A stretch of 64,000 bases of DNA, taken from Beijerinckiaceae bacterium. GTDB taxonomy: Bacteria > Pseudomonadota > Alphaproteobacteria > Rhizobiales > Beijerinckiaceae. The translations under genes were made by a program, and so were the position numbers. Below the pieces are notes generated by a model. It saw only the letters and a program-made list of their open reading frames with translations, made no database searches and was not told where the DNA came from. Below are positions 52,916-64,000 of this stretch, piece by piece. Each line of letters starts with the position of its first letter. Positions within the stretch are counted from its first letter, which is position 1. The stretch covers positions 1,029,175 through 1,093,174 of the forward strand of contig CBDICN010000002.1 in the NCBI GenBank assembly GCA_965277355.1, given 5' to 3'.

Positions 52916-55771
52916 TCAGTGCCCGAGCCGCTCCAGCAGATCGCGCACATGGACCTGGTCGGCCTTGTAGTTGCCGGTCAGCGTGTACATCACCAGGTTG
53001 ACGCCGCCGCGCAGCGCCATCTCGTGCTGGCGCGCATCGCCCGGCACCAGCGGGTAGAGCGCCTCGCCGTACTCGTCGCCGGCCCAGCCGCCGGCGAGGT
53101 CGTTGGAGGTGAGCACGATCGGCGAGACGCCGTCGCCGGCGCGGGCCGGGCGCTGCTGGTTGTCGCCGATCGGCGGCGGCAGGGCCTCGATCCAGGTCTG
53201 CCCGGAGGCGTAGCGCCCGATAAAATTGTCAATGAGGTAGAAGGTCTTGGTCACGACGTGGTCGCGCGGGACCGGCTCCAACTCGGGAACGTCGACGCCG
53301 GCCAGCAGCTGGCGCAGCCAGGCCGCCCCGGGCGACGGCTCGCCGCTCGGATGCACGCTGAGCGCGTCGCGGGTGTCGAACACGATCGTGCCGCCCTGGT
53401 GCATGTAGGCGGCGATCTTCTCGACGGCCTGGCGCGACGGCTGCGGGTTCGCCGCCACGATCGGCCAGTACAGAAGCGGGTAGAAGGCGAGCTGGTCCTT
53501 CGCAGGATCGATGCCGATCGGCTCGCCGGGATCGAGCGAGGTGCGCGTCGCCAGCGTCGACGAAAGCGACGCCAGCCCCTGGCGGCTGATCTCGTCGACC
53601 TTGGCGTCGCCGCTGATCATATAGGCGAGCCGCGTCGTGAGCGCCGAGGCGAGATCGCGCGGCGCGATGGTGATGGGCGGCGCGGGTCCGGTCGTCGCGG
53701 GGGGCGCCGGATCGGCTCGTGCCGGGCCGGGCGCCTGGAGCAGGCCGAGGCCGGCGACGATCGCGAGCACGATGGAGGCGGTGACGGCCGCCCGTCGCGG
53801 CGCGAGGCGAAGCTTGCCGCCAAGCCAAAGCGACGCCAGGCTGTCGAGCAGGAAGAGGATGAACGCCGCGGCGATGAGCCAAGGCCGCAGATCGATCGGC
53901 TCGGCCGCCATCAGCGGCGCCTTGTCGAAGGGAAGCCCGGAGAAATCCGCCGCTGGGATCGTGTCCCCGGCCGCCAGCGTATTGATCGCCAGCAATCCGT
54001 CGCCGGTCCCGTAGAACCCCGGCGGATGCTCGGGCGACGCCACGCCGCCATAGCTTGTCGCCACCGGCTTGGCGGTCGGCGGCGGCGGCCCCAGCACGCC
54101 GAACCCGTCGAGTGTTCGGCTCGGCGAAACCGTCGCCGTGGCCGGCGCCGCGGACCCGGCTTCCGCCGCCTTGGCTTCGGTCGCCGCCGCCGCGCGCGGC
54201 GCCGCGCCCGAGAGCGCGACGATCTTTTTCAGCATGTCCACGAAGAGCCCCGAGATCGGCAGGTTGGACCAGGTGGTGTCGGCGGTGAGGTGGAACAGCA
54301 CGACGCGACCCTTGCCCCGCATCGCGGCGGTGACAAGTGGCGTGCCGTCGGACAGTTGCGCCCAGGTCTTGCCCGGCAGACCGGGCTCCGGCTCGGCCAG
54401 CACCTGCCGCATCACCGTCACCTCTTTCGGCACCTTGAGGCCGACGAACGGGCTCGGCGGCTCGAACGCCGCCAGCGTCTTGGGCTGTTCCCAGGACAGC
54501 GAACCGCCGAGCACCCGGCCGCCCCGCCGCAGCTTGACGGGGACAAGGTCGTCGGTGGCGCCCGACAGCCGCGTTCCGGCGAAACGCACCAGCAGGCCGC
54601 CGCCGTCGACCCATTGCGAGAGCCGGTCGCGGATCGGCCCGGTGATGGTGCCGACGTCGGCCAGGACCAGCACGTTGACGCGGTCGTCGAGCATCGCGCC
54701 GATCGGGTCCACCGCGCCGGGCTTGGGCTGGTGCACGTCGGCGAAGGGAGCGAGCGCCTTCGCGAGATAGTAGTCGGGTGCGAGCAGCGGCTGCGCGGTG
54801 TCCGCCGTCTCGCCCGAGACGATGCCGACGCTGCGGCGGCGCCACCGCGCATCGAGCAGGGTGACCGCGCCGGCGCTGTGGGCCGCCGCGAGCTCGAGGC
54901 GAGCGATCTCGTTGCGCAGCTCGGTGGGGAGATCGAACCTGGCATCGACGGCGTCGGCCTTGCCGAACGCGAACGGCGACTCGCCGATCGCGAGCCCCTT
55001 CATGTCGAGCGCGCGGACGATGCCCACTCCCTTCCGGGCCTCTCCGGCGCCCGACCTCAGCACGCGGACGGCGAGGCTGCCGCCGTCGTTGCGCGGGTCG
55101 GTCAAGGCGAGCACCGGCCGCGCGTCCGCCACCAGCACCGTCTTGACCGGCAGCGCGGCGAGCCGCTCGGCGAACGCCCGCGCGCCGCCGCGCTCGAGCC
55201 CGTCCGCGAGCCAGACGACGGTCGTGTCGGGCCGGGCCTTGACGAAGCGCTCCACCGCGGCGGCGGTGGGCGCGCGGTCCGGCGTGTACGGCGCCGGCTT
55301 CAACGCGCGCAGACGCTCGAGCGCGGTGGCGGCATCGACCGGAACGATGTCCCGGCCGCCCTCCGACATCGCGGCGACCGCCACCGTCTGGGCGTTCTGC
55401 CGCGCCGCCTCGATGCGCTGGGCCGCCGCCGTCACCCGGCGGTCCCAGGCCGGCGCCGCCGCCCAGCTGTCGTCGATGGCGATCAGCAGCGGCCCCTTGC
55501 CGGCGGTGCCGACGGAGAGCGGGTTCCAGATCGGGCCGGCCATCGCGAGGATCACCATCGCGGCCAGCACGAGGCGCAGGAGCAGCAGCCACCACGGCGT
55601 CGCGGCCGGCGTCTCGTCGCGCGGCCGAAGGTCGAGGATCAGCTTCAGCGGCGGAAAATGCACGCGCTGCGGCCGCGGCGGCGTCACCCGCAGAAGGACG
55701 TAGAGAACCGGCAGGCCGGCCAGCGCCAGCAGCGCGAAGGGAACGGTGAAGGCGAGCGGCAGGCCCAGCAT
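52916..55771 (-). CDS. BatA/vWA + DUF4159 domain membrane protein
   Basis: TPWWLLLLRL (BatA), IAIDDSWA, FYPLLYWP, GVNLVMYTLTGNYKADQVH. Confidence 0.88.
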   Translation of the reverse strand: MLGLPLAFTVPFALLALAGLPVLYVLLRVTPPRPQRVHFPPLKLILDLRPRDETPAATPWWLLLLRLVLAAMVILAMAGPIWNPLSVGTAGKGPLLIAIDDSWAAAPAWDRRVTAAAQRIEAARQNAQTVAVAAMSEGGRDIVPVDAATALERLRALKPAPYTPDRAPTAAAVERFVKARPDTTVVWLADGLERGGARAFAERLAALPVKTVLVADARPVLALTDPRNDGGSLAVRVLRSGAGEARKGVGIVRALDMKGLAIGESPFAFGKADAVDARFDLPTELRNEIARLELAAAHSAGAVTLLDARWRRRSVGIVSGETADTAQPLLAPDYYLAKALAPFADVHQPKPGAVDPIGAMLDDRVNVLVLADVGTITGPIRDRLSQWVDGGGLLVRFAGTRLSGATDDLVPVKLRRGGRVLGGSLSWEQPKTLAAFEPPSPFVGLKVPKEVTVMRQVLAEPEPGLPGKTWAQLSDGTPLVTAAMRGKGRVVLFHLTADTTWSNLPISGLFVDMLKKIVALSGAAPRAAAATEAKAAEAGSAAPATATVSPSRTLDGFGVLGPPPPTAKPVATSYGGVASPEHPPGFYGTGDGLLAINTLAAGDTIPAADFSGLPFDKAPLMAAEPIDLRPWLIAAAFILFLLDSLASLWLGGKLRLAPRRAAVTASIVLAIVAGLGLLQAPGPARADPAPPATTGPAPPITIAPRDLASALTTRLAYMISGDAKVDEISRQGLASLSSTLATRTSLDPGEPIGIDPAKDQLAFYPLLYWPIVAANPQPSRQAVEKIAAYMHQGGTIVFDTRDALSVHPSGEPSPGAAWLRQLLAGVDVPELEPVPRDHVVTKTFYLIDNFIGRYASGQTWIEALPPPIGDNQQRPARAGDGVSPIVLTSNDLAGGWAGDEYGEALYPLVPGDARQHEMALRGGVNLVMYTLTGNYKADQVHVRDLLERLGH

Positions 55772-56703
55772 CAGGCCATGCCCGGCATCGCGAGGTCGGC
55801 GCTCTGCTCGAGACGGATGCGCAAGGCGAGGAGCGCCTCCGAGGCCGGACGATCCGTGCGATGGATCGCGAGACTCCAGCCCTTGGACCTGCAGAGGGCG
55901 GCGATCGCATCGCGATGGGCGGCGAGCCGGCGGATATAGTCGCCGCGGAACCGCTCGGCCTGGCCGACGCGCATGGTCGCGGCCGAGTCGACGTCGCGGA
56001 ACTCGGTGTGACCGGAGAAGGGGAAGGTCTCCTCGATCGGGTCGGCGATCATCACGAGATGACCGTGGGCGCCGCGCGCGGCGATGTCGGCGATGCGCGC
56101 CTCGAGCTCGGCGATGGGCGTGAGGAAGTCGCCGAGCAGGACGGCGCGCACGCGCGGCGCCAGGGTGCCGGCCGGCGGCAGTTCATCGTTTTGCGTCGTA
56201 CCGTCGGCGATGAGCGCCTCGGCGAAGCGTTCGATGATCGCGCGCGAGGCGAGCGGGCGCGTGAGGCCGATCAGGCCGACCCGCTCGCCGCCGCGCACCA
56301 GCAGATCGGCGGCGGCGAGGCCGAGCACGATGGCGCGATCGAGCTTCGACTGCATCGCCAGGCCCGACGCGAACGCCATCGACCGCGAGCGATCGATCCA
56401 CACCCACACCGTATGCGCCGATTCCCATTCGCGCTCGCGCACGTAGATCTTGTCGTCGCGGGCGGAGCGGCGCCAATCGACGCGGACGGCGGACTCGCCG
56501 GAGACGAAGGGGCGGAACTGCCAGAAATTCTCGCCGGCACCGGCGCGCTTGCGCCCGTGGACGCCGTGCATGGCGGAGGAGGCGATCTCCTTCGCCGCCA
56601 CCACAAGCGCGGGCAGACGCCGCGCGAGATCGATCCCACCGCGCTGGTGGGCGTGGCCGACGCGCTGCTCGTCGCGTTCGAGGAGCCGGGTTTCTAGCGC
56701 CAT
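55771..56703 (-). CDS. DUF58 protein (MoxR-associated)
   Basis: HGRKRAGAGENFWQFR, DWRRSAR, REREWE, LGDF, DPIEETFPF. Confidence 0.9.
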   Translation of the reverse strand: MALETRLLERDEQRVGHAHQRGGIDLARRLPALVVAAKEIASSAMHGVHGRKRAGAGENFWQFRPFVSGESAVRVDWRRSARDDKIYVREREWESAHTVWVWIDRSRSMAFASGLAMQSKLDRAIVLGLAAADLLVRGGERVGLIGLTRPLASRAIIERFAEALIADGTTQNDELPPAGTLAPRVRAVLLGDFLTPIAELEARIADIAARGAHGHLVMIADPIEETFPFSGHTEFRDVDSAATMRVGQAERFRGDYIRRLAAHRDAIAALCRSKGWSLAIHRTDRPASEALLALRIRLEQSADLAMPGMA

Positions 56704-56720
56704 GAAAAATCTCGCCGCGT

Positions 56721-57356
56721 CTCCTCCCCTGCGCGCAGCGCGGGGGAGGGGGACCGCCGTAGGCGGTGGAGGGGGCTGCCGCAGCCGCGATGCCGAGAGC
56801 GCCGGCCCGAGCGCGTGTCTTGCGAAAGAGAAGCGGCGGCCGAGGCGGGCTGCCAACGCGCTATTTGCCGGCAGGGAGGCCGCCGGCTAAGCTCGGCGCA
56901 CCCCCTCCGAGTGCTTCCATGCGCGCTGCGGTCATCACCTTCAAGAGGGCTCGTCGCCTCCGCCGCGAGATGACGCTGCCGGAAGTCCTGCTTTGGCAGG
57001 CCTTGCGAAACCATGCTCTGGCCGATGAGCGCTTCCGCCGCCAGCATCCGTGCGGCCCCTATAGTCTCGACTTCTTCTGTGCCGCGGCGAAACTTGCGGT
57101 CGAGATCGACGGCGCTGTTCATGACGATCCGGCTCGTTTTGCGAAGGACCGGTCTCGTGACCGGTTTCTCGACGAGCAGCGCATCAGAGTTATTCGGTTC
57201 AATGCTCGCGACGTGCTCGATGTCCGGGCGCGGCAGGACGTTCTGGACACGATCAACGCCGCTGTCCGTGGTCGCATTTCGCCCTGATGGGGTACCGGCG
57301 GCCGCCCCCTCCACCATGCTTCGCATGGTCCCCCTCCCCCGCTTCGCGGGGGAGTA
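56721..57356. mobile_element. DUF559 nuclease cassette bounded by inverted palindromic arms (family C)
   Basis: Left arm 56721-56782 and right arm 57299-57356 are inverted copies of CTCCCC-hairpin-GGGGAG GGGGAC-hairpin-GTGGAGGGGGC. Confidence 0.7.
56919..57287 (+). CDS. DUF559 (Vsr-like) endonuclease
   Basis: RARRLRREMTLPEVLLW, FRRQHP.GPY.LDF, VEIDGAVH, RVIRF. Confidence 0.9.
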   Translation: MRAAVITFKRARRLRREMTLPEVLLWQALRNHALADERFRRQHPCGPYSLDFFCAAAKLAVEIDGAVHDDPARFAKDRSRDRFLDEQRIRVIRFNARDVLDVRARQDVLDTINAAVRGRISP

Positions 57357-57373
57357 TGCGACCTGCGCCTCCT

Positions 57374-58429
<1,056 letters not shown>

Positions 58430-58504
58430 GGACGGCTGGCTCCTCGGGGCTTAAGCGTCGTCTTCGGCGAGAGTGCCGACTTTCCCGTTCAATGGGTTGC
58501 AATT

Positions 58505-59134
58505 ATGTCTGACAATGCCGCCGACAAACAGGGGCAACCCGCGCCGGGGAGGCTGGCCAGTCTCGCCGAGGCGATCGGTGCGACCAAGATACGCGGCTCG
58601 GAGACACGCGGCGCGGAGATACGCGGCTCGGAGGCGCGCGGCCCGGCGCCGGTCGACACATGGCATCCGCCCTATTGCGGCGAGATCGATCTGAGGATCG
58701 CGGCCGACGGCACCTGGTTCTACGCCGGCACCCCGATCAACCGGCCGGCGATGGTCGCGCTGTTCGCCGGCATCCTGCGCAAGGACCCGGAACGCTACGT
58801 GCTGGTGACGCCGGTCGAATGCGTCGGCATCGCGGTGGACGACGTGCCGTTCGTCGCGGTGGCGATGGAGCACGACGAGGGCGGCGCGCTGCGCTTCGTC
58901 ACCAACCTCGGCGACGAGGTGGCGGCAGGGCAAGAGCACCCGCTGCGCTTCGAAACCGAGCCCGGCGGCGGCGTGAAACCCTACGTCCATGTCCGCGGCG
59001 GCCTGTGGGCGCGGCTCACCCGCGCGCTCGCGCTCGACCTGCTCGACGGCGCCGAGGAGCGCTACGAGGGCGGAGTGGCCACGGCCGGCATCGCCAGCGG
59101 CGGGTCGTTCTTTGCGATCGGACCGGCGGGGTGA
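58505..59134 (+). CDS. DUF1285 family protein (15-bp x4 repeat at 58586-58645)
   Basis: WHPPYCGEIDLRIAADGTWFY.GTPI.R, LVTPVE...I.VDDVPF, PYVHVRGGL.ARL. Confidence 0.9.
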   Translation: MSDNAADKQGQPAPGRLASLAEAIGATKIRGSETRGAEIRGSEARGPAPVDTWHPPYCGEIDLRIAADGTWFYAGTPINRPAMVALFAGILRKDPERYVLVTPVECVGIAVDDVPFVAVAMEHDEGGALRFVTNLGDEVAAGQEHPLRFETEPGGGVKPYVHVRGGLWARLTRALALDLLDGAEERYEGGVATAGIASGGSFFAIGPAG

Positions 59135-59157
59135 CTCATGTTGATGAGCTGAAGCTT

Positions 59158-59176
59158 TAGTGAAATAGTTGCACTA
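59158..59176. promoter_or_regulatory. Operator-like inverted repeat of the DUF4160/DUF2442 module
   Basis: TAGTGAAA-TAG-TTGCACTA (7 of 8 positions palindromic). Confidence 0.5.
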
Positions 59177-59190
59177 CAGGCCGATTGCGC

Positions 59191-59424
59191 ATGCCCGTTC
59201 TGCAACGCTTCGGATCGGTCAGCGTGCGGATGTATGCCGACGATCACCGGCCGCCGCACCTCCACATCGTGGCTCCTGACTTTCAGGTGCTCGTGCGGAT
59301 CTCCGATCTGGCCGTGATCGCGGGAGAGGCTCGCCCAGCCGACATCGCGGAAGCGGTCGGATGGGCGCGGGGCAACCGTGAATTACTCGCTCGCAAATGG
59401 GCGGAGTTGAACGAACGAGGCTGA
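59191..59424 (+). CDS. DUF4160 family protein (putative toxin)
   Basis: VRMYADDHRPPHLH, W...N.ELL..KW. Confidence 0.85.
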   Translation: MPVLQRFGSVSVRMYADDHRPPHLHIVAPDFQVLVRISDLAVIAGEARPADIAEAVGWARGNRELLARKWAELNERG

Positions 59425-59867
59425 TGATGCCGAAGAAAAACCTGCCTCGCATCAAGTCGGTCAAAGCGGACGACAGACCGTTGACTTTGCACGTCCGCTG
59501 GACCACGGGCGAGGAGAGTCACGTGGACGTAGCGGCCATGATCGGTGCCTACCGGCGCTACGAGCCGCTTCGCCGATCGCCGGACATGTTCCGCGATGTG
59601 CGCTTGGGTGACCTCGGAACCGACATCGTCTGGACCGACGACATCGACATGGCGGCCGACACCGTGTGGCGCCTCGTGCAGGAACAGGCCGGGGCCACCT
59701 TGTCGCCGGATGCCTTCAGGCAATGGCGCGAGCGCAATAAATACACCCTCGACACCGCCGCGGCGGCGCTCGGGATCAGCCGCCGCATGGTCGCCTATTA
59801 CGAGCAGGGCAGAAAGCCGATCCCGCGTGTCGTCGCGCTCGCCACTCGCGCGCTCGAACTCGCCTGA
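59424..59867 (+). CDS. DUF2442 + HTH protein (putative antitoxin)
   Basis: F..V.LGDLGTDIVWTDDIDM, then FRQWRER..YTLDTAAAALGISRRMVAYYEQG. Confidence 0.85.
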   Translation: MMPKKNLPRIKSVKADDRPLTLHVRWTTGEESHVDVAAMIGAYRRYEPLRRSPDMFRDVRLGDLGTDIVWTDDIDMAADTVWRLVQEQAGATLSPDAFRQWRERNKYTLDTAAAALGISRRMVAYYEQGRKPIPRVVALATRALELA

Positions 59868-59908
59868 CCAGTGCAACGGGCGTATAAGGACGCCCCGGGA
59901 GACTTGAA

Positions 59909-60157
59909 ATGGCGATCACGCTGACACCCGAGCAGCAAACGTGGCTTCAGGCGCACGTCGCGAGCGGTGCCTACGCGTCGATCGAGGAAGCCGTTCGCCA
60001 CCTCGTCGACGAGCGCATCGCCGAGGAGCACGACGATCTCGCCTGGGCCAAGCCCTATGCCGACGAGGCGCGGGCCGACATCGCGCAGGGGCGGGTCATC
60101 ACGCTGGAGGAGCACGAGAAGCGTAACGATGCTCGCTTCGACGCCATGAAAGGCTGA
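59909..60157 (+). CDS. ParD-like antitoxin
   Basis: ITLTPEQQTWLQAHVASGAYASIEEAVR. Confidence 0.85.
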   Translation: MAITLTPEQQTWLQAHVASGAYASIEEAVRHLVDERIAEEHDDLAWAKPYADEARADIAQGRVITLEEHEKRNDARFDAMKG

Positions 60158-60489
60158 TGGCACGTGTCGTCTTCACCGAGGCGGCCGACGCCGATTTGGC
60201 CGCCATTTACGACGACCTCGCACAACAAGCGGGCCTTGCCTCAGCCGCGAGATATCGGTGCTTGTTCGGAGCTTTGTTCGCGCGGCTCGCCGATCATCCC
60301 GACAGTGGACCTCGACGCCGTCATCTTGGCGCGGACATGCGGATAGGCGTGGTCTGGCCTTACCTCGTCGTCCATAGCGACGCGATGTCTGCCGACACGG
60401 TGACGATCGCGCGTATCGTGCATGGGCGCCGAAAGATCAGCGGGCGACTTCTGCTCACCTCGAGCCGACCGCCGGGGCAGACGCCTTGA
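60157..60489 (+). CDS. ParE/RelE-family toxin
   Basis: VVFTEAADADLAAIYD, LADHPDSG..R, VTIARIVHGRR. Confidence 0.85.
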   Translation: MARVVFTEAADADLAAIYDDLAQQAGLASAARYRCLFGALFARLADHPDSGPRRRHLGADMRIGVVWPYLVVHSDAMSADTVTIARIVHGRRKISGRLLLTSSRPPGQTP

Positions 60490-61163
60490 AAGCCGACCAT
60501 GCCCTGACCGCAGAGGCGGTTCATTCCTTCACCCCCGGCGCCGTGTTCGCCCGCGTCGCGGCGCGCGTCGCGCCGACGCTGGCGCCGGACGCGCTCGACC
60601 GCGCGGTGACGCCGCTCACCGGCGATCACGCGATGAACCCGTGGTCGGTCACCGCCGACTTCCTCGCCAAGGCGCGGGCGGCGGCGGTGCTGATCGCGCT
60701 GATCGAGCGCGAGGACGGCGTCCACGTGCTGTTGACCCGGCGCACCAGCGGCCTGCGCGACCATTCCGGCCAGATCGCCTTTCCCGGCGGGAAAGTGGAT
60801 CCCGACGACGCCTCGCCGGCCGCCACCGCGCTGCGCGAGGCGTGGGAGGAGGTCGGACTCGCGGCGGACCATGTCGAGGTGATGGGCTATCTCGGCGCCT
60901 ATCTGACGCGCACCGGCTTCCGCATCGTGCCGGTCGTCGCCCGCGTGCGGCCGCCGTTCGCGCTGACGCTCAACCCGGCCGAGGTGGTGGAGACCTTCGA
61001 GGTGCCGTTCGCCTTCCTGATGAGCGAGGCCAACCACACTCTCAGCCAGGCCACCTGGAAGGAGACGCCCTGGCACTTCTACAAGATCGACTACGAGGCC
61101 CGCGCGATCTGGGGCATCACGGCCGGCATCCTGCGCATCCTCTACGAGACGCTGTACCTCTAG
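60486..61163 (+). CDS. CoA pyrophosphatase, Nudix (NudL-like)
   Basis: LRDHSGQIAFPGG, ALREAWEEVGL, IWGITAGIL; start uncertain. Confidence 0.9.
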   Translation: MKADHALTAEAVHSFTPGAVFARVAARVAPTLAPDALDRAVTPLTGDHAMNPWSVTADFLAKARAAAVLIALIEREDGVHVLLTRRTSGLRDHSGQIAFPGGKVDPDDASPAATALREAWEEVGLAADHVEVMGYLGAYLTRTGFRIVPVVARVRPPFALTLNPAEVVETFEVPFAFLMSEANHTLSQATWKETPWHFYKIDYEARAIWGITAGILRILYETLYL

Positions 61164-61181
61164 CGCCGACCCCAGGCGCGT

Positions 61182-61353
61182 GTATCCTCCTCCGTGAAAC
61201 GGGGGAGGGGGACCATGCGGAGCATGGTGGAGGGGGCGGCCGCCGCTCCGATGTCTGGACGTTCGACCGAGAGCAAGCTTCGAGCTTGCAGCGGCGGCAG
61301 CCCCCTCCACCGCCTGCGGCGGTCCCCCTCCCCCGCTGCGCGGAGGAGGATAC
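61182..61353. repeat. Gene-less paired family-C element (MITE/REP-dimer-like)
   Basis: Perfect 13-bp terminal inverted repeat GTATCCTCCTCCG...CGGAGGAGGATAC; arms match those around the DUF559 gene. Confidence 0.85.
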
Positions 61354-61442
61354 GGCCCGGCACTTCCACCTTGCCGGATTCGCGCTCGAGACTCTGCCCC
61401 GGCGGCGCCGTGCTTGCCACGAATCGTGCGACAATGCTCCTC

Positions 61443-61498
61443 ATGAGCGAGCCGACATGAGCGAGCCGACATGAGCGAGCCGAGATGAGCGAGCCGAG
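61443..61498 (+). repeat. 14-bp x4 tandem repeat over the ampG-like start codon
   Basis: (ATGAGCGAGCCGAC)2(ATGAGCGAGCCGAG)2. Confidence 0.92.
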
Positions 61499-62774
61499 AC
61501 CGCGCCTGCGCCTGGCGGAGATCGTCCAGGATCGCACCCTGGCGCTGATGCTCGCGCTGGGGTTCAGCTCGGGCCTGCCGTTCCTGCTGGTGCTCGGCGA
61601 CCAGGCGCTGCGGCTCGCCGAGTCCCATGTGGCGATCGAGACGATCGGCCTGATGAGCTGGGTCGGCCTGTGGTACTCTCTAAAGTATCTTTGGGCGCCG
61701 GTGATCGACAGGGTCGACCTCCCGATCCTGGCGCGCGCGCTCGGACGGCGGCGCGCCTGGCTGCTGGTGTTCCAGCTCGCGGTGGTCGCGGGCCTGATCG
61801 GGCTCGCCTTCGCCGACCCCCGGCCGCACGCGCTCGGCCTGGCGATCGCGTTCTCGACCTTCACGGCCTTCGCCGCAGCCTCGCAAGACATCGTCATCGA
61901 CGGGTGGCGCATCGACGCCGCGCCGACGCAGCGCCAAGGCGTGATGGCGGCGACCGGCAACCTCGGCTATCGCCTCGCGCTGATCTGCACCGGCTACGTC
62001 GCTCTCGTCCTCGCCCAGCGTTACGGCTGGACCCGCGCCTACCTGGCGATGGCCGGGCTGATGACGATCGGGATCGTGGCCGGCCTGCTCTCGCCGCGTC
62101 TGCCCGAACGCGAGGGGGTCGTGCGGCCATCGCTGGCGCGGAGCTTCATCGATCCGCTGGCCGACCTCGGCAAGCGTCACGGCTGGACCTTGATCGCCAT
62201 CCTGCTTCTCGTCGCCCTCTACCGGCTGCCCGACTTCCTCACCGGCGTGATGGCCAATCCGCTCTACGTCAAGCTGCACTTCTCGAAGGACGAGATCGGG
62301 ACGATGGTCAAGCTCTACGGCGTTTGGGTCGGCATCGCCGGCGCTTTCGCCGGCGGCTTCGCGATCCTTCGGCTCGGCCTGATGCCGGCGCTCCTGATCG
62401 GCGGCGTCTGCGCGTCGGCCTCGCACCTCTGCCTCGCCCTTCTCGCCGCCTCCGACAAGAGCCTCGCGCTGCTGGCGCTCTCCGTCAGCGTCGAGAACTT
62501 CGCCGGCAATTTCGCCGGCGCGGCGCTCATCGCCTACATGTCGTCGCTGACGTCGCCGCTGTTTGCTGCGAGCCAATATGCGCTGCTGAGCTCGCTCTAC
62601 GCGCTGCTCGGCAAGTTCTTCGGCGGCTTCTCCGGCTTCGCCGTGAAGGCCTACGGCTACCCGAGCTTCTTCATCGCCTCGTCGACGATCGGGATCCCGG
62701 TCGCCCTGCTCTGCCTGTTCGTCTGGGCGCGGCAGCGCAAACCGCAGCCCGACGCCGCGCTCGTGGAAGCGTGA
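61485..62774 (+). CDS. ampG: AmpG-like MFS permease
   Basis: LGFSSGLPF, LKYLWAP.IDR, GRRRAWLL, ASQDIVIDGWRI, ASQYALLSSL. Confidence 0.85.
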   Translation: MSEPRPRLRLAEIVQDRTLALMLALGFSSGLPFLLVLGDQALRLAESHVAIETIGLMSWVGLWYSLKYLWAPVIDRVDLPILARALGRRRAWLLVFQLAVVAGLIGLAFADPRPHALGLAIAFSTFTAFAAASQDIVIDGWRIDAAPTQRQGVMAATGNLGYRLALICTGYVALVLAQRYGWTRAYLAMAGLMTIGIVAGLLSPRLPEREGVVRPSLARSFIDPLADLGKRHGWTLIAILLLVALYRLPDFLTGVMANPLYVKLHFSKDEIGTMVKLYGVWVGIAGAFAGGFAILRLGLMPALLIGGVCASASHLCLALLAASDKSLALLALSVSVENFAGNFAGAALIAYMSSLTSPLFAASQYALLSSLYALLGKFFGGFSGFAVKAYGYPSFFIASSTIGIPVALLCLFVWARQRKPQPDAALVEA

Positions 62775-62833
62775 CGGCCCCATATCGCCCTGGCCGATGC
62801 CCGCCAAGCATCGGCCTGTTCCGTCGCGCGCCG

Positions 62834-63163
62834 TTAGTCTTTCGTCGCGCTCCCGGCGGCGTGGGTGACGGCCTCGCCGAGCGCCTTGATCTTCTCGGCG
62901 CTCTTGCCGTCCGCCTTGCCGGCGATGCGCACGGTCTCCTCGCCGAGCTTCGCCATGAGGTCCTTGACCTTGGCGCCGTCGATCTCGTCGGCCTGCAGCA
63001 GCTTCCTCAACCGCTCGAGGTTGCCGTGGATGGTCTTGGCGCCGGACACCTCCGACTTCTCGAGCGTCGCCTCCCAGCCCTCGATGTTCTTCACCGCGGC
63101 GGAGACCGTGAAACCCTTGATGCCTTCCTTGAGGTGCTTGATGGTGGCGTCGAACTGCGGCAT
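62834..63163 (-). CDS. Hypothetical Lys/Ala-rich helical protein (109 aa)
   Basis: Host-like codon usage; GGGAG RBS before ATG 63163. Confidence 0.7.
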   Translation of the reverse strand: MPQFDATIKHLKEGIKGFTVSAAVKNIEGWEATLEKSEVSGAKTIHGNLERLRKLLQADEIDGAKVKDLMAKLGEETVRIAGKADGKSAEKIKALGEAVTHAAGSATKD

Positions 63164-63289
63164 TCCCAACTCCCTGGCAATCACCGTCGCCCGACGGCCA
63201 AACCGGTCAAGCTGCAAGGCGCGGGTTTGGTTCTGCCGCGCCCGCTGCGCCGCCTTGTCGCAAGCGCCGCTGTCCGCCTTACGGCCGCG

Positions 63290-63781
63290 TCAGTCGGGAA
63301 GCCGGGTGATCCGCGGCCGCCAGATGCCGAGCACGACGTTGGCCGTCGCCACCGCGAAGAGCACCCACAGCGTGGCGCGCTCCGTTGCGAGCGACCCGGC
63401 GAGCGACCCGGCGAGCGCGGCCGGATCGGCGTGGGCCGCCAGCGCCGCGGCGCTGCGCCGCGCCTCGTCGTGCATCGGGGCCTGGACGCCTTGCAGGCCC
63501 CCCTCGAAGAGGAGGACGCCGCTGACGAGCTTCACCCAGGCCCAGCCGGCGTTGTGAAAGGCGCGGTTCACGGCGATCGCGAGCAGGCCGGCCATCAGGC
63601 TGAGGCTTAGCGAGGGGAGGAAGACCCACGAGGAGATCGCGCCCATCGCCGCGCGCACCGCGGCGTAGCCGGCGAGCGAGGACTTCGGCGGCGCGACGCT
63701 CGAGAGGACGAGCAGCGAGGCCATCGCGCCCAACAGCCCGATCGCGCCCATCGTGTGGAGGAATTTCAGGAGGCGTCGCAC
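63290..63781 (-). CDS. DUF2269-like membrane protein
   Basis: LLKFLHT.GAIG, four TM segments, GWAWVK, LGIWRP; 12-bp repeat at 63387-63417. Confidence 0.7.
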   Translation of the reverse strand: MRRLLKFLHTMGAIGLLGAMASLLVLSSVAPPKSSLAGYAAVRAAMGAISSWVFLPSLSLSLMAGLLAIAVNRAFHNAGWAWVKLVSGVLLFEGGLQGVQAPMHDEARRSAAALAAHADPAALAGSLAGSLATERATLWVLFAVATANVVLGIWRPRITRLPD

Positions 63782-63900
63782 GGCGTGAAGAGGCCCCCGT
63801 TGGTCGGCTGGCCGGAACCCTACCGCGGCCGCCGGGATCGCGGTAGCGGGATCGTCCGCGCCCGTCACGTGCCGCGCTACGATCCGGTCGAGGCCACCGT

Positions 63901-63966
63901 GTATCCTCCCCCGTGAAACGGGGGAGGGGGACCATGCGGAGCATGGTGGAGGGGCTGCCGCCGCTC
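63901..63966 (+). repeat. Family-C palindromic left arm (partner probably beyond the window)
   Basis: GTATCCTCCCCCGTGAAACGGGGGAGGGGGACCATGCGGAGCATGGTGGAGGGG, near-identical to 61182-61247. Confidence 0.85.
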
Positions 63967-64000
63967 CGTTGACGAGAAGTTCACCGAGAACAGACATCCG

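Follow-up and report, generated by a model that had tools for sequence, protein, structure and literature searches.

A DUF559 nuclease gene between inverted foldable arms in a Beijerinckiaceae genome: a tentative case for a partnership of repeats and enzyme

The window (the whole stretch of 64,000 nucleotides that was analysed) carries an intact DUF559 gene inside the moxR-DUF58 operon, antisense to both neighbours and between two inverted arms, just as the preliminary description of this DNA had it, together with two elements composed of such arms but lacking the gene. The relevant features are:

55771-56703, minus strand: DUF58, downstream gene of the interrupted operon, start codon 17 nt from the arm
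56721-56788, unstranded: R-type arm read in reverse, adjoining the DUF58 start, upstream of DUF559; 94% complementary to 61288-61336, i.e. pairing with the right arm of the gene-less element
56789-56918, plus strand: 130-bp segment between arm and start codon, unique in the genome
56919-57287, plus strand: DUF559 / Vsr-like (EDxHD-type) nuclease gene, intact, 122 aa (PF04480, E=1.3e-27)
57296-57357, unstranded: L-type arm read in reverse, adjoining the moxR stop, downstream of DUF559; 62 nt, 92% complementary to the left arm of the gene-less element
57374-58429, minus strand: moxR (AAA_3 ATPase), upstream gene of the interrupted operon, stop codon 16 nt from the arm
61182-61353, unstranded: gene-less element between a NUDIX gene and an MFS gene
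63901-64000, unstranded: left part of a second gene-less element, complete as C2:1093075-1093245 (window 63901-64071)

In relatives, DUF58 overlaps or abuts the stop codon of moxR: among the 17 compared, moxR and DUF58 exhibit a TGATG overlap in three and a gap of 2-19 bp in another three, and a DUF559 gene is found at this junction in the present genome only. The 637 bp of window 56721-57357 therefore represent an insertion into the junction, and the gene is not ancestral there. The segment is a single inserted unit, a nuclease gene between two inverted foldable arms. Two genes of the moxR-DUF58-BatA operon that are normally translationally coupled are now 670 bp apart, separated by structured, antisense-coding DNA, and the expression of moxR and DUF58 may be affected. 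We also found a gene-less element with arms of type T1 (other arm types are termed here T2 and T3) at the moxR-DUF58 junction of G002. Orthology of the G000 and G002 elements was rejected, as their arm make-up and flanks differ, and for the same reason it cannot be claimed that the gene was simply acquired or lost at this site. Several unrelated palindrome families occupy the same operon junctions in different species, which suggests that such junctions are permissive or preferred. The generalization that the gene is always antisense inside operons holds for 3/3 copies in this genome and not beyond it, the neighbour orientations across 98 loci being ++ in 40, +- in 37, -- in 15 and -+ in six.

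Each arm of about 65 nt is composed of a pyrimidine/purine hairpin, a mini-hairpin and a purine tract that mirrors the stem. The arm at 56721-56788 has the outer hairpin CTCCTCCCCTGCGCG-CAG-CGCGGGGGAGG, the mini-hairpin ACCGCC-GTA-GGCGGT and the inner purine tract GGAGGGGGC, and the arm at 57296-57357 reads GCCCCCTCC, then the mini-hairpin ACCATGC-TTC-GCATGGT and the outer hairpin CCCCCTCCCCCGC-TTC-GCGGGGGAG. The term "double hairpin" used earlier for these arms is correct as to the hairpins but incomplete, as each arm also ends in the purine tract mirroring the first stem. Likewise, the statement that the same arms also form gene-less elements holds, but the two arms within one element are not identical: the mini-hairpin is ACCATGC..GCATGGT in the L arm versus ACCGCC..GGCGGT in the R arm, an asymmetry kept in about 24 copies. 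Among the stem variants of the mini-hairpin, 17 of 21 are fully paired, compared with 3.8 (maximum 9) in shuffles, and it is preserved by compensatory changes. The inner tract is better explained by a mirror reading in 127 arms and by a direct reading in 26, and A-to-T replacements in it are systematic, as in TMECO. In the TMECO/BoxC/PIT grammar a pyrimidine stem is followed by its purine partner, a linker and a purine (G/A/T) tract mirroring the purine stem (PMC4666352); to judge from their sequence, our arms match this grammar of the intrastrand-triplex (TMECO/BoxC) class, the triplex itself being putative. A search of window 55000-64000 gave no Rfam match at E values up to 0.1.

The conservation of the arms is best seen at the murB-ddl locus, where three species have a gene-bearing unit in common. 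There the arms are conserved at about 90-95%, while the non-coding DNA next to them cannot be aligned and ddl, the neighbouring gene, shows a pS of 0.37-0.49; conservation of the arms thus greatly exceeds that of neutral DNA, and they are constrained as structures. The unit is syntenic, with equal gene orientation in all three species, and mini-hairpin variants have been exchanged between its two arms in G000 as compared with G002 and G007. Such an exchange would be in line with arms serving site-specific or homologous inversion, toggling the expression of a potentially toxic nuclease relative to outside promoters, and DUF559 is indeed 14-fold enriched among computationally predicted inversion targets (PMC9881135), an enrichment to be expected, however, from any flanking inverted repeat. 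An invertible switch nevertheless seems very improbable to us: apart from the equal orientation at murB-ddl, a relative from the same DUF559 family lies at the same locus in 16/16 contigs found, and the 10 loci compared in its population are identical over 925 nt, with no inverted form among them; there is no associated recombinase gene, and the switch leaves the numerous gene-less doublets unexplained.

These doublets, of which we counted about 24 of ~170 bp in the 3.9-Mb genome, share their arms with the gene-bearing form, as proposed. The best example is the empty 172-bp element at 61182-61353, in which the L arm (61182-61247) and the R arm (61290-61353) are separated by a 42-nt centre with its own small hairpin, and the 13-bp ends GTATCCTCCTCCG/CGGAGGAGGATAC form the perfect inverted pair noted before. 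Its predicted fold is a single long hairpin (z=-9.5, nearest-neighbour folding with Watson-Crick pairs only). The third arm copy reported to start at 63901 proved to be 98% identical over 57 nt and to belong to a complete element extending beyond the window end, which as a whole is 88% identical to that at 61182-61353. Throughout the ~24 doublets the arms are conserved and the centres are unalignable. We considered whether the gene-less copies could be deletion derivatives of the copy in the window and rejected this, as the 130-bp leader has no sequence in common with the centres of the elements. In this genome, every arm pair more than 200 bp apart encloses only a DUF559 gene.

The 122-aa protein matches the PF04480 profile with 96 bits (curated cut-off 20.6) and PDB entry 3HRL with E=2.6e-12. 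In 36 homologues E22, D51, E62, D64, H68 and D77 are invariant, including the catalytic E/D/H/D set (residue roles from PMC3239194). An AlphaFold model (pLDDT 85, pTM 0.79) has as its best Foldseek matches 3HRL, the catalytic domain of the homing endonuclease I-Bth0305I (3R3P) and Vsr (1VSR), and predicts a Vsr-like fold with conserved active-site residues, hence a putative nuclease, in which the catalytic core is preceded by two N-terminal helices only, with no separate DNA-binding domain. The dN/dS of the gene is 0.07-0.25, with synonymous sites saturated, which indicates purifying selection. On the strength of this ratio, the predicted fold and the invariant catalytic set, we regard the gene as functional. 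The three small DUF559 proteins of this genome are 55-59% identical to each other; the closest relative of the window protein among 5.8 billion proteins is 69% identical, and an exact-protein look-up gave no match. DUF559 is present in 139/301 genomes sampled in the order. The 130-bp segment is missing from the other gene-bearing copies, whose arm stands 20-30 nt from the start codon; a consensus scan detected no sigma-70-like promoter in 56789-56918, and no promoter or intrinsic terminator in the element.

The association between arms and gene extends well beyond this locus. In the 3.9-Mb genome each of the three small DUF559 genes is enclosed by a pair of such arms, and, using a flank score threshold of at least 30 bits, we found arms flanking 31/56 DUF559 homologues from relatives and the order, as well as 57/80 in a sample across Alphaproteobacteria, compared with 2/1000 random 366-bp windows and 1/140 in a further control. 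The remaining homologues (25/56 and 23/80) are devoid of arms, among them a clade that is syntenic in five genomes. In both homologue samples the polarity is constant, with the outer hairpin outermost and the purine tract beside the gene. The preliminary description asked whether DUF559 genes are significantly flanked by inverted arms, and they are; neither are the homologues generally unflanked, nor is the gene ancestral at the junction with repeats landed independently on each side, the two outcomes named there as fatal to its proposal. Independent landing of abundant palindromes on either side of an unrelated small gene might be suspected given that the same junctions are hit by unrelated palindrome families in different species, but mere coincidence is effectively refuted by the control rate of 0.2% of windows, and it is also at odds with the constant polarity and the clade-specific arm types.

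Analysis of the protein tree reveals that this specificity is pronounced. T1 arms accompany six proteins, which together make up one clade (support 100/99), with T2 and T3 arms on other clades; the arm labels require 20 changes on the tree versus 27.7 when shuffled (0/200 shuffles as low), and arm and protein distances are correlated (Mantel r=0.43, 0/2000 permutations as high). The anticipated co-variation of arm sequence with protein phylogeny was thus recovered, and nuclease clade and arm type appear to be inherited and to diverge together. In 21 related and partly incomplete genomes of the genus, with kinship ignored, T1 arms are commoner where a T1-clade gene is present (p=0.028), T2 arms where a T2-clade gene is present (p=0.0034), and neither cross-type control is significant (p=0.40 and p=0.34); arm abundance would accordingly be associated with the cognate gene and not with that of the other type. 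Orphan populations also occur, e.g. 30 T2 arms in this genome, which has no T2-clade gene, and 18 T1 and 39 T2 arms in G009, which has one pseudogene only.

These correlations bear on the possibility that DUF559 is a mere passenger, i.e. a Vsr-like repair nuclease useful to the host and not acting on the arms, which are moved by host recombination, replication slippage or another factor. In a study of Caulobacter, the DUF559 protein VsrA (CCNA_02930) is interpreted as an enzyme of T:G repair with a functional tie to a cytosine methylase; in cells lacking the ScmA cytosine methylase it elicits the SOS response (PMC12907096), which is in-vivo evidence for the capacity of a protein of this sort to damage DNA. 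The strong purifying selection, the long vertical retention of the gene, the existence of the arm-less syntenic clade and the presence of three C5 methylase genes in our genome agree with such a role. None of these methylase genes adjoins any of the three small DUF559 genes, and unlinked pairs of a Vsr-type nuclease and a C5 methylase are known (PMC12907096). More seriously, a passenger would need to have been captured repeatedly by different arm families, with the same polarity and tens of bases from its start and stop codons, and the match between arm type and protein clade, as well as the arm counts rising with the cognate gene only, would go unexplained. We therefore consider this role unlikely.

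Another alternative is that the arm doublets are an older, independent repeat family spread by other means, and that DUF559, as a free-standing homing-type nuclease gene, homes into them: it would cut a doublet and be copied into its centre by break repair, as a parasite and not a mobiliser. The copy in the window would fit, being an L...R pair, as in the gene-less elements, with the gene and the unique 130-bp segment where those have their variable centre. The gene-less T1 element at the moxR-DUF58 junction of G002, the orphan arm populations and the homing-endonuclease domain as the second-best fold match point in the same direction. Against homing, the centres of gene-less copies are unconserved, so that a fixed place for recognition or insertion is not obvious there; gene-bearing T1 units mostly carry two L-type arms, while the majority of gene-less ones are L...R; and the G002 element differs from ours as described above. 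Moreover, the protein is devoid of the DNA-binding domain of known EDxHD homing enzymes, and pure parasitism does not predict that arm abundance rises with the cognate gene. On balance, homing appears improbable.

As to mobility, the preliminary description proposed a family of autonomous and non-autonomous mobile elements. The shared arms uphold this in part, but target-site duplications, near-identical copies and a transposase are all missing. The genome contains no Y1/RAYT transposase and gives no PF01797 match, in keeping with the earlier statement that no transposase is involved, so that a RAYT as hidden mobiliser could be discarded. Inspection of 43 termini for a target-site duplication gave no direct repeat, only an inverted GCGC extension; GCGC stands beside about 70% of termini and extends the inverted repeat. 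Recent transposition was rejected as well, as the gene-less copies are 77-92% alike and none exceeds 92%. A low-copy, mostly vertical partnership similar to REPIN/RAYT fits these data better than an autonomous transposon plus MITEs.

Our best explanation, which we put forward tentatively, is that repeats and enzyme act as partners, as in REPIN/RAYT systems but with another enzyme fold. We infer that the nuclease may bind and cleave the arms and have some part in their spread. The protein has no separate domain for reading DNA; its proposed target is not a long sequence but the folded arm, be it a hairpin, a cruciform or an intrastrand triplex, which it would nick or cut. Break repair from other copies (gene conversion) would keep the arms alike and now and then place a further arm pair, either carrying the gene or lacking it, at another permissive site between genes, and the gene would persist because it is seated within its own substrate. 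Some observations do not sit easily with this partnership: the missing target-site duplications and recent copies, the stable gene-bearing units, the orphan arm populations and the arm-less homologues. To our knowledge, a hydrolytic PD-(D/E)XK nuclease cannot by itself join strands. Moreover, the only DUF559 protein studied in vivo, Caulobacter VsrA, is taken in the original study for a nuclease of mismatch repair tied to a cytosine methylase (PMC12907096).

A broader proposal, possible though doubtful, is that DUF559 is the missing partner of the triplex-type and palindromic repeats of Proteobacteria (T1, T2 and the enterobacterial TMECO/BoxC), each clade cutting its own folded arm, with break-induced copying maintaining, homogenising and occasionally multiplying the arms. 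If true, this would be a second, independently evolved repeat-enzyme symbiosis beside REPIN/RAYT, in which a Vsr-like hydrolase takes the place of the transposase. The two GIY-YIG paralogues of this genome are likewise flanked on both sides by a repeat family of their own, one such pair of gene and repeats lying at 47010-47418, and since this is the same layout, the DUF559 system is perhaps one of several. For decades, catalogues have listed triplex-type and RIME/BoxC-like palindromes with no protein partner, and DUF559 is among the commonest uncharacterised small nuclease families. We found no published description of a partnership between DUF559 and palindromic arms in the literature; the reproducible, type-specific link provides a testable protein partner for an orphan class of repeats and, if functional, would change the annotation and interpretation of intergenic repeats in GC-rich Proteobacteria.

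Among known systems, MITEs with their parent insertion sequence have in common with our elements the terminal inverted repeats, the intergenic location, and a short gene-less majority beside a longer gene-bearing minority. They differ in that ours exhibit neither near-identical copies nor a target-site duplication or transposase domain, that short copies have centres unrelated to the long copies, and that the only ORF encodes the 122-aa nuclease. The EDxHD homing endonucleases (I-Bth0305I, PMC3239194) and Vsr share the catalytic fold (predicted here) and the E/D/H/D set, and the position of the nuclease gene is likewise tied to a specific DNA context. The homing enzymes, however, are associated with introns or inteins and NUMOD/HTH domains (PMC3239194), whereas the present gene encodes 122 aa only and is free-standing and intergenic, flanked by folded repeats and not inside a conserved host gene. 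Caulobacter VsrA is similar in Pfam family, small size and alphaproteobacterial host, but the accessible text on it discusses no repeat context (PMC12907096).

As to TMECO, near-identical arms occur in relatives of this DUF559 (CCCTCTCCCC..GGGGAGAGGG-CTA-GGGTGAGGGG). TMECO/BoxC elements, too, are found either alone or in inverted pairs formed from two subtypes, and their partial deletions leave a hairpin, as in the footprint in G006. The differences are that the linker of T1 and T2 arms is a covarying mini-hairpin and that a nuclease gene lies between our arms, whereas no mobility-related genes adjoining TMECO were reported (PMC4666352).

The REPIN/RAYT system, i.e. REP doublets and a REP-associated tyrosine transposase (PMC3116915, PMC3337134, bioRxiv 10.1101/2021.07.10.451892), differs from ours in its enzyme, an HUH/Y1 (IS200-like) transposase instead of a Vsr-like PD-(D/E)XK hydrolase. 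In addition, our repeat unit is a hairpin with a mini-hairpin and a mirror purine tract, its copies number tens and not hundreds with no identical "master" copies, and the link to the enzyme is one of sequence comparison. The common features are short intergenic palindromes, mostly in inverted doublets with a variable spacer, a low-copy gene flanked by repeats whose type is tied to the gene clade, and largely vertical and long-lived inheritance. Repeat populations that are larger in the presence of the gene and orphaned after its loss may be a further parallel, the association here being uncorrected for phylogeny. Should the link prove functional, it would mean that REPIN/RAYT-like partnerships arose more than once, with different chemistry.

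The window harbors an intact DUF559 gene, running antisense between two minus-strand genes of the moxR-DUF58 operon (a BatA/DUF4159 gene comes next after the DUF58 gene) and enclosed by two inverted arms, which leave 17 nt to the DUF58 start and 16 nt to the moxR stop. This organization had been proposed in a preliminary description, together with an empty element built of the same arms and a third copy at 63901, and we found all of these features as claimed, the third copy being the beginning of a second gene-less element. Folding of the empty element yields a single long hairpin (z=-9.5).

Features of the arm-bracketed locus and its surroundings (window positions)
55771-56703, minus strand, DUF58 gene
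56721-56788, arm on the DUF58 side, 94% complementary to the right arm of the gene-less element 61182-61353
56919-57287, plus strand, DUF559 ORF, 122 aa (PF04480, E=1.3e-27), here termed copy A
57296-57357, arm on the moxR side, 92% complementary to the left arm of the same element
57374-58429, minus strand, moxR (AAA_3)
59185-59424 and 59397-59867, DUF4160 and DUF2442-HTH genes, first pair of toxin-antitoxin type
59909-60157 and 60157-60489, 82-aa ORF and ParE toxin, second such pair
61182-61353, gene-less element, 172 bp, perfect 13-bp termini
from 63901, second gene-less copy, continuing beyond the window end

Together, the two small toxin-antitoxin-like pairs span 59185-60489. A 14-bp tandem repeat, CATGAGCGAGCCGA (four copies, 61442-61497), covers the start of an MFS transporter gene (61485-62774); since 14 is not divisible by three, a change of copy number would shift the start region of that gene. 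In ORF 58214-59134 the stretch that precedes the DUF1285 domains contains another tandem repeat, of 15 bp (58587-58646, 3-4 copies, 87-90% alike).

Arm searches of the whole genome (3.89 Mb, 66.5% GC), in which the window occupies C2:1029175-1093174, returned about 60 matches to this arm type, T1: gene-less doublets, about 24 in number, three wide pairs spaced 430-506 bp, and a few arms on their own. According to tblastn and HMM searches, there are exactly three small DUF559 genes, each within one of the wide pairs: copy A, copy B between murB and ddl (C2:1202722-1203084), and copy C between hsdR and hsdM (C1:1306817-1307162), which has an N-terminal frameshift. The fourth DUF559 protein (332 aa, with only a C-terminal DUF559 domain) is devoid of arms. 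Some gene-less T1 copies form an extended subfamily (C1:521088, C1:766947, C2:2277982, C2:2268118, C2:134336), with termini about 25 nt longer (..ATCTTGGYGCGCGR followed by ATCC) and, in three members, an insertion of about 37 nt within the R-arm mini-hairpin; at 89-92%, they resemble each other more closely than any other gene-less copies do.

Alignment of 24 gene-less copies from this genome reveals a conserved and asymmetric layout, in which the left (L) arm differs from the right (R) arm. The L arm comprises, in this order, ATCCTCCYCCGC-loop-GCGGGGGAGG, GGG, the mini-hairpin ACCATGC-GAA-GCATGGT, and GGAGGGGGC; the R arm is its mirror image except for the mini-hairpin ACCGCC-TT-CGGCGGT, and the centre of 45-60 nt is unalignable. 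Copy A has an L...R arm pair as in the gene-less elements, plus a 130-bp leader unique to it; in copies B and C and in their relatives both arms are of L type and lie within about 20-60 nt of the start and stop codons. Two structural features exceed what inverted repetition alone would give. Of the 21 sequence variants of the mini-hairpin stem, 17 are fully paired (shuffled halves: mean 3.8, maximum 9), and the inner purine tract repeats the purine half of the outer stem in mirror order rather than as its complement (e.g. GGGGGAGG/GGAGGGGG, GGGAGAGG/GGTGAGGG, GGGAGAAG/GATGAGGG), the mirror reading being better than the direct one in 127 arms and worse in 26. Judged from sequence, the grammar of the arms is that of purine-motif intrastrand triplexes, as described for TMECO/BoxC repeats, which formed triplexes in vitro (PMC4666352).

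Of 41 close relatives, 17 have DUF559, as do 139 of the 301 genomes sampled from the order, with 1-8 copies each. In a comparison of the 300 bp preceding each gene or control window with the reverse-complemented 300 bp following it, arms scoring at least 30 bits flanked 31 of 56 DUF559 genes from the close relatives and the order and, within the T1-like clade, 57 of the 80 members examined (Devosia, Rhizomicrobium, Brevundimonas, Caulobacter, Sphingomonas and others), versus 2 of 1000 random 366-bp windows of the studied genome and 1 of 140 windows in unrelated loci. Mere coincidence of gene and arms is thus scarcely credible. The polarity is constant, with the outer hairpin distal to the gene and the purine tract proximal. 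On the protein tree all six T1-armed proteins fall in one clade (support 100/99), T2 arms (CCTTCTCCC..GGGAGAAGG..GGATGAGGG) characterize two further clades, a fourth has T3 arms, and one clade has no arms and is syntenic in five genomes, i.e. its gene is stationary. Co-variation of arm sequence with protein phylogeny, for which a test had been proposed, was borne out: arm labels require 20 changes on the tree versus 27.7 when shuffled (0 of 200 shuffles as low), and protein distance correlates with arm distance (Mantel r=0.43; 0 of 2000 permutations as high).

The arm counts were also compared with gene presence in 21 genomes of the genus, several of them incomplete. After subtraction of the arms flanking the genes, T1 arms number 1-24 in genomes with a T1-clade gene versus 0-18 in those without (one-sided p=0.028), and T2 arms 2-132 versus 0-39 (p=0.0034), in this small, phylogeny-uncorrected sample; cross-type comparisons in the same genomes gave p=0.40 and p=0.34. 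Such type-specific dosage is the pattern predicted by a cognate partnership, in a small sample in which kinship is ignored and clear orphans exist: the genome under study has 30 T2 arms, chiefly as doublets, and no T2-clade gene, and one relative (G009) has 18 T1 and 39 T2 arms, its sole gene being a pseudogene. A solo T2 arm lies in the window at 46689-46741 (CCTTCTCCCGCTTGCGGGAGAAGGTGGCCC..GGGTCGGATGAGGG).

The moxR-DUF58 junction was compared in 17 relatives, labelled as Beijerinckiaceae MAGs. Three of them show a TGATG overlap of the two genes and another three a gap of 2-19 bp, and the remaining junctions contain assorted palindromic elements: a gene-less T1 in G002, T2 in G017, and, in four genomes, members of a third family. 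This survey shows copy A to be an insertion, not ancestral, at a junction used repeatedly, in species too diverged for a base-exact empty-site comparison. In G007 the junction (locus L042) spans 883 bp with four copies of the third palindrome family (GTCATTCCGG...CCGGAATGAC), within which we found a 95-aa GIY-YIG gene (PF01541, E=2.3e-11).

The murB-ddl junction behaves likewise. Gene-bearing T1 elements with synteny on both sides occur in G000 (the genome under study), G002 and G007, an empty 37-bp spacer in G001, and T2 or other families in other genomes. G006 (L085) has a solo perfect terminal hairpin, ATCCTCCCCCGCGAAGCGGGGAGGAT, at the site where three other species have the DUF559 element, resembling what a deletion between the two terminal palindromes would leave behind. 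In G015 (L088) a complete R arm, 9 bp and a complete L arm, with neither centre nor gene, form an "inside-out" pair whose outer termini abut, resembling a circle junction or a pair of truncated neighbours. Among the gene-bearing elements (L018, L003, L002) mini-hairpin variants trade places between arms (ACCATGC upstream and ACCACGC downstream in G000, the reverse in G002 and G007), and gene orientation is constant.

In these three species the arms are about 90-95% conserved, whereas the DNA from arm to start or stop codon is unalignable and pS in the adjacent ddl gene is 0.37-0.49; the arms are therefore either constrained in each copy or homogenised by gene conversion that is still under way. 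The T1 clade shows dN/dS of 0.07-0.25, at saturated synonymous sites, and the catalytic set E22, D51, E62/D64, H68, D77 is invariant among 36 homologues. The AlphaFold model of the window protein (pLDDT 85) matches the DUF559 structure 3HRL, the catalytic domain of the homing endonuclease I-Bth0305I, and Vsr. Homing of the gene into doublets already in place is an unlikely alternative explanation of the association. We likewise regard as improbable that DUF559 is a Vsr-type repair enzyme and a mere traveller between repeats, for which speak a study of Caulobacter VsrA (PMC12907096) and three C5 methylase genes in the genome (C2:803714-804832, C2:1179047-1180270, C1:1165046-1165993). Two of these have a gene-less T1 element (C2:806842, C2:1184019) at a distance of 2-4 kb, and the third is 3.5 kb from the 332-aa protein (C1:1169511-1170506).

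We tentatively prefer a nuclease-repeat partnership, in which the protein would recognise and nick the folded arm, and break repair using other copies as template would keep the arms uniform and from time to time duplicate them. The papers found to mention DUF559 yield only a PD-(D/E)XK catalogue, the VsrA study (PMC12907096) and a table of predicted inversion targets that includes DUF559 (PMC9881135), and no link to flanking repeats was found in literature mentioning DUF559. Arms acting as an inversion switch, to which that table would point, are very improbable.

A second nuclease fold has a DUF559-like layout in the same genome: a 98-aa GIY-YIG gene (47073-47369, plus strand) lies between inverted arms of about 36 nt (unit 47010-47418) that belong to another repeat family (CTCATGGTGAGGAGCGC..GCGCGTCTCGAACC, 26 cores), and its sole paralogue (C2:201898-202182, 75% identical) is bracketed likewise.

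The proposal of an autonomous/non-autonomous mobile family stands insofar as gene-bearing and gene-less forms share arms; active transposition is disfavoured, as we found no target duplication at element termini and no near-identical gene-less copies in the genome. GCGC beside about 70% of termini was considered as a target duplication and rejected as an extension of the inverted repeat. As had been stated, no transposase is involved, neither a transposase nor a RAYT being found in the genome. No close relative of the window protein was found among 5.8 billion proteins (69% at best), and one family member occupies a single fixed locus in 16 of 16 contigs found, the 10 loci compared being identical over 925 nt. 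To our knowledge, a hydrolytic nuclease is incapable of strand transfer. Taken together, these observations make the system look like a low-copy, mostly vertical gene with a slowly turning-over repeat population. Nearly identical arms to those of TMECO, near which a triplex-repeat survey did not find mobility functions (PMC4666352), are carried by some relatives of the window gene, and the system resembles the published picture of REPIN/RAYT more closely than that of an insertion sequence with MITEs.
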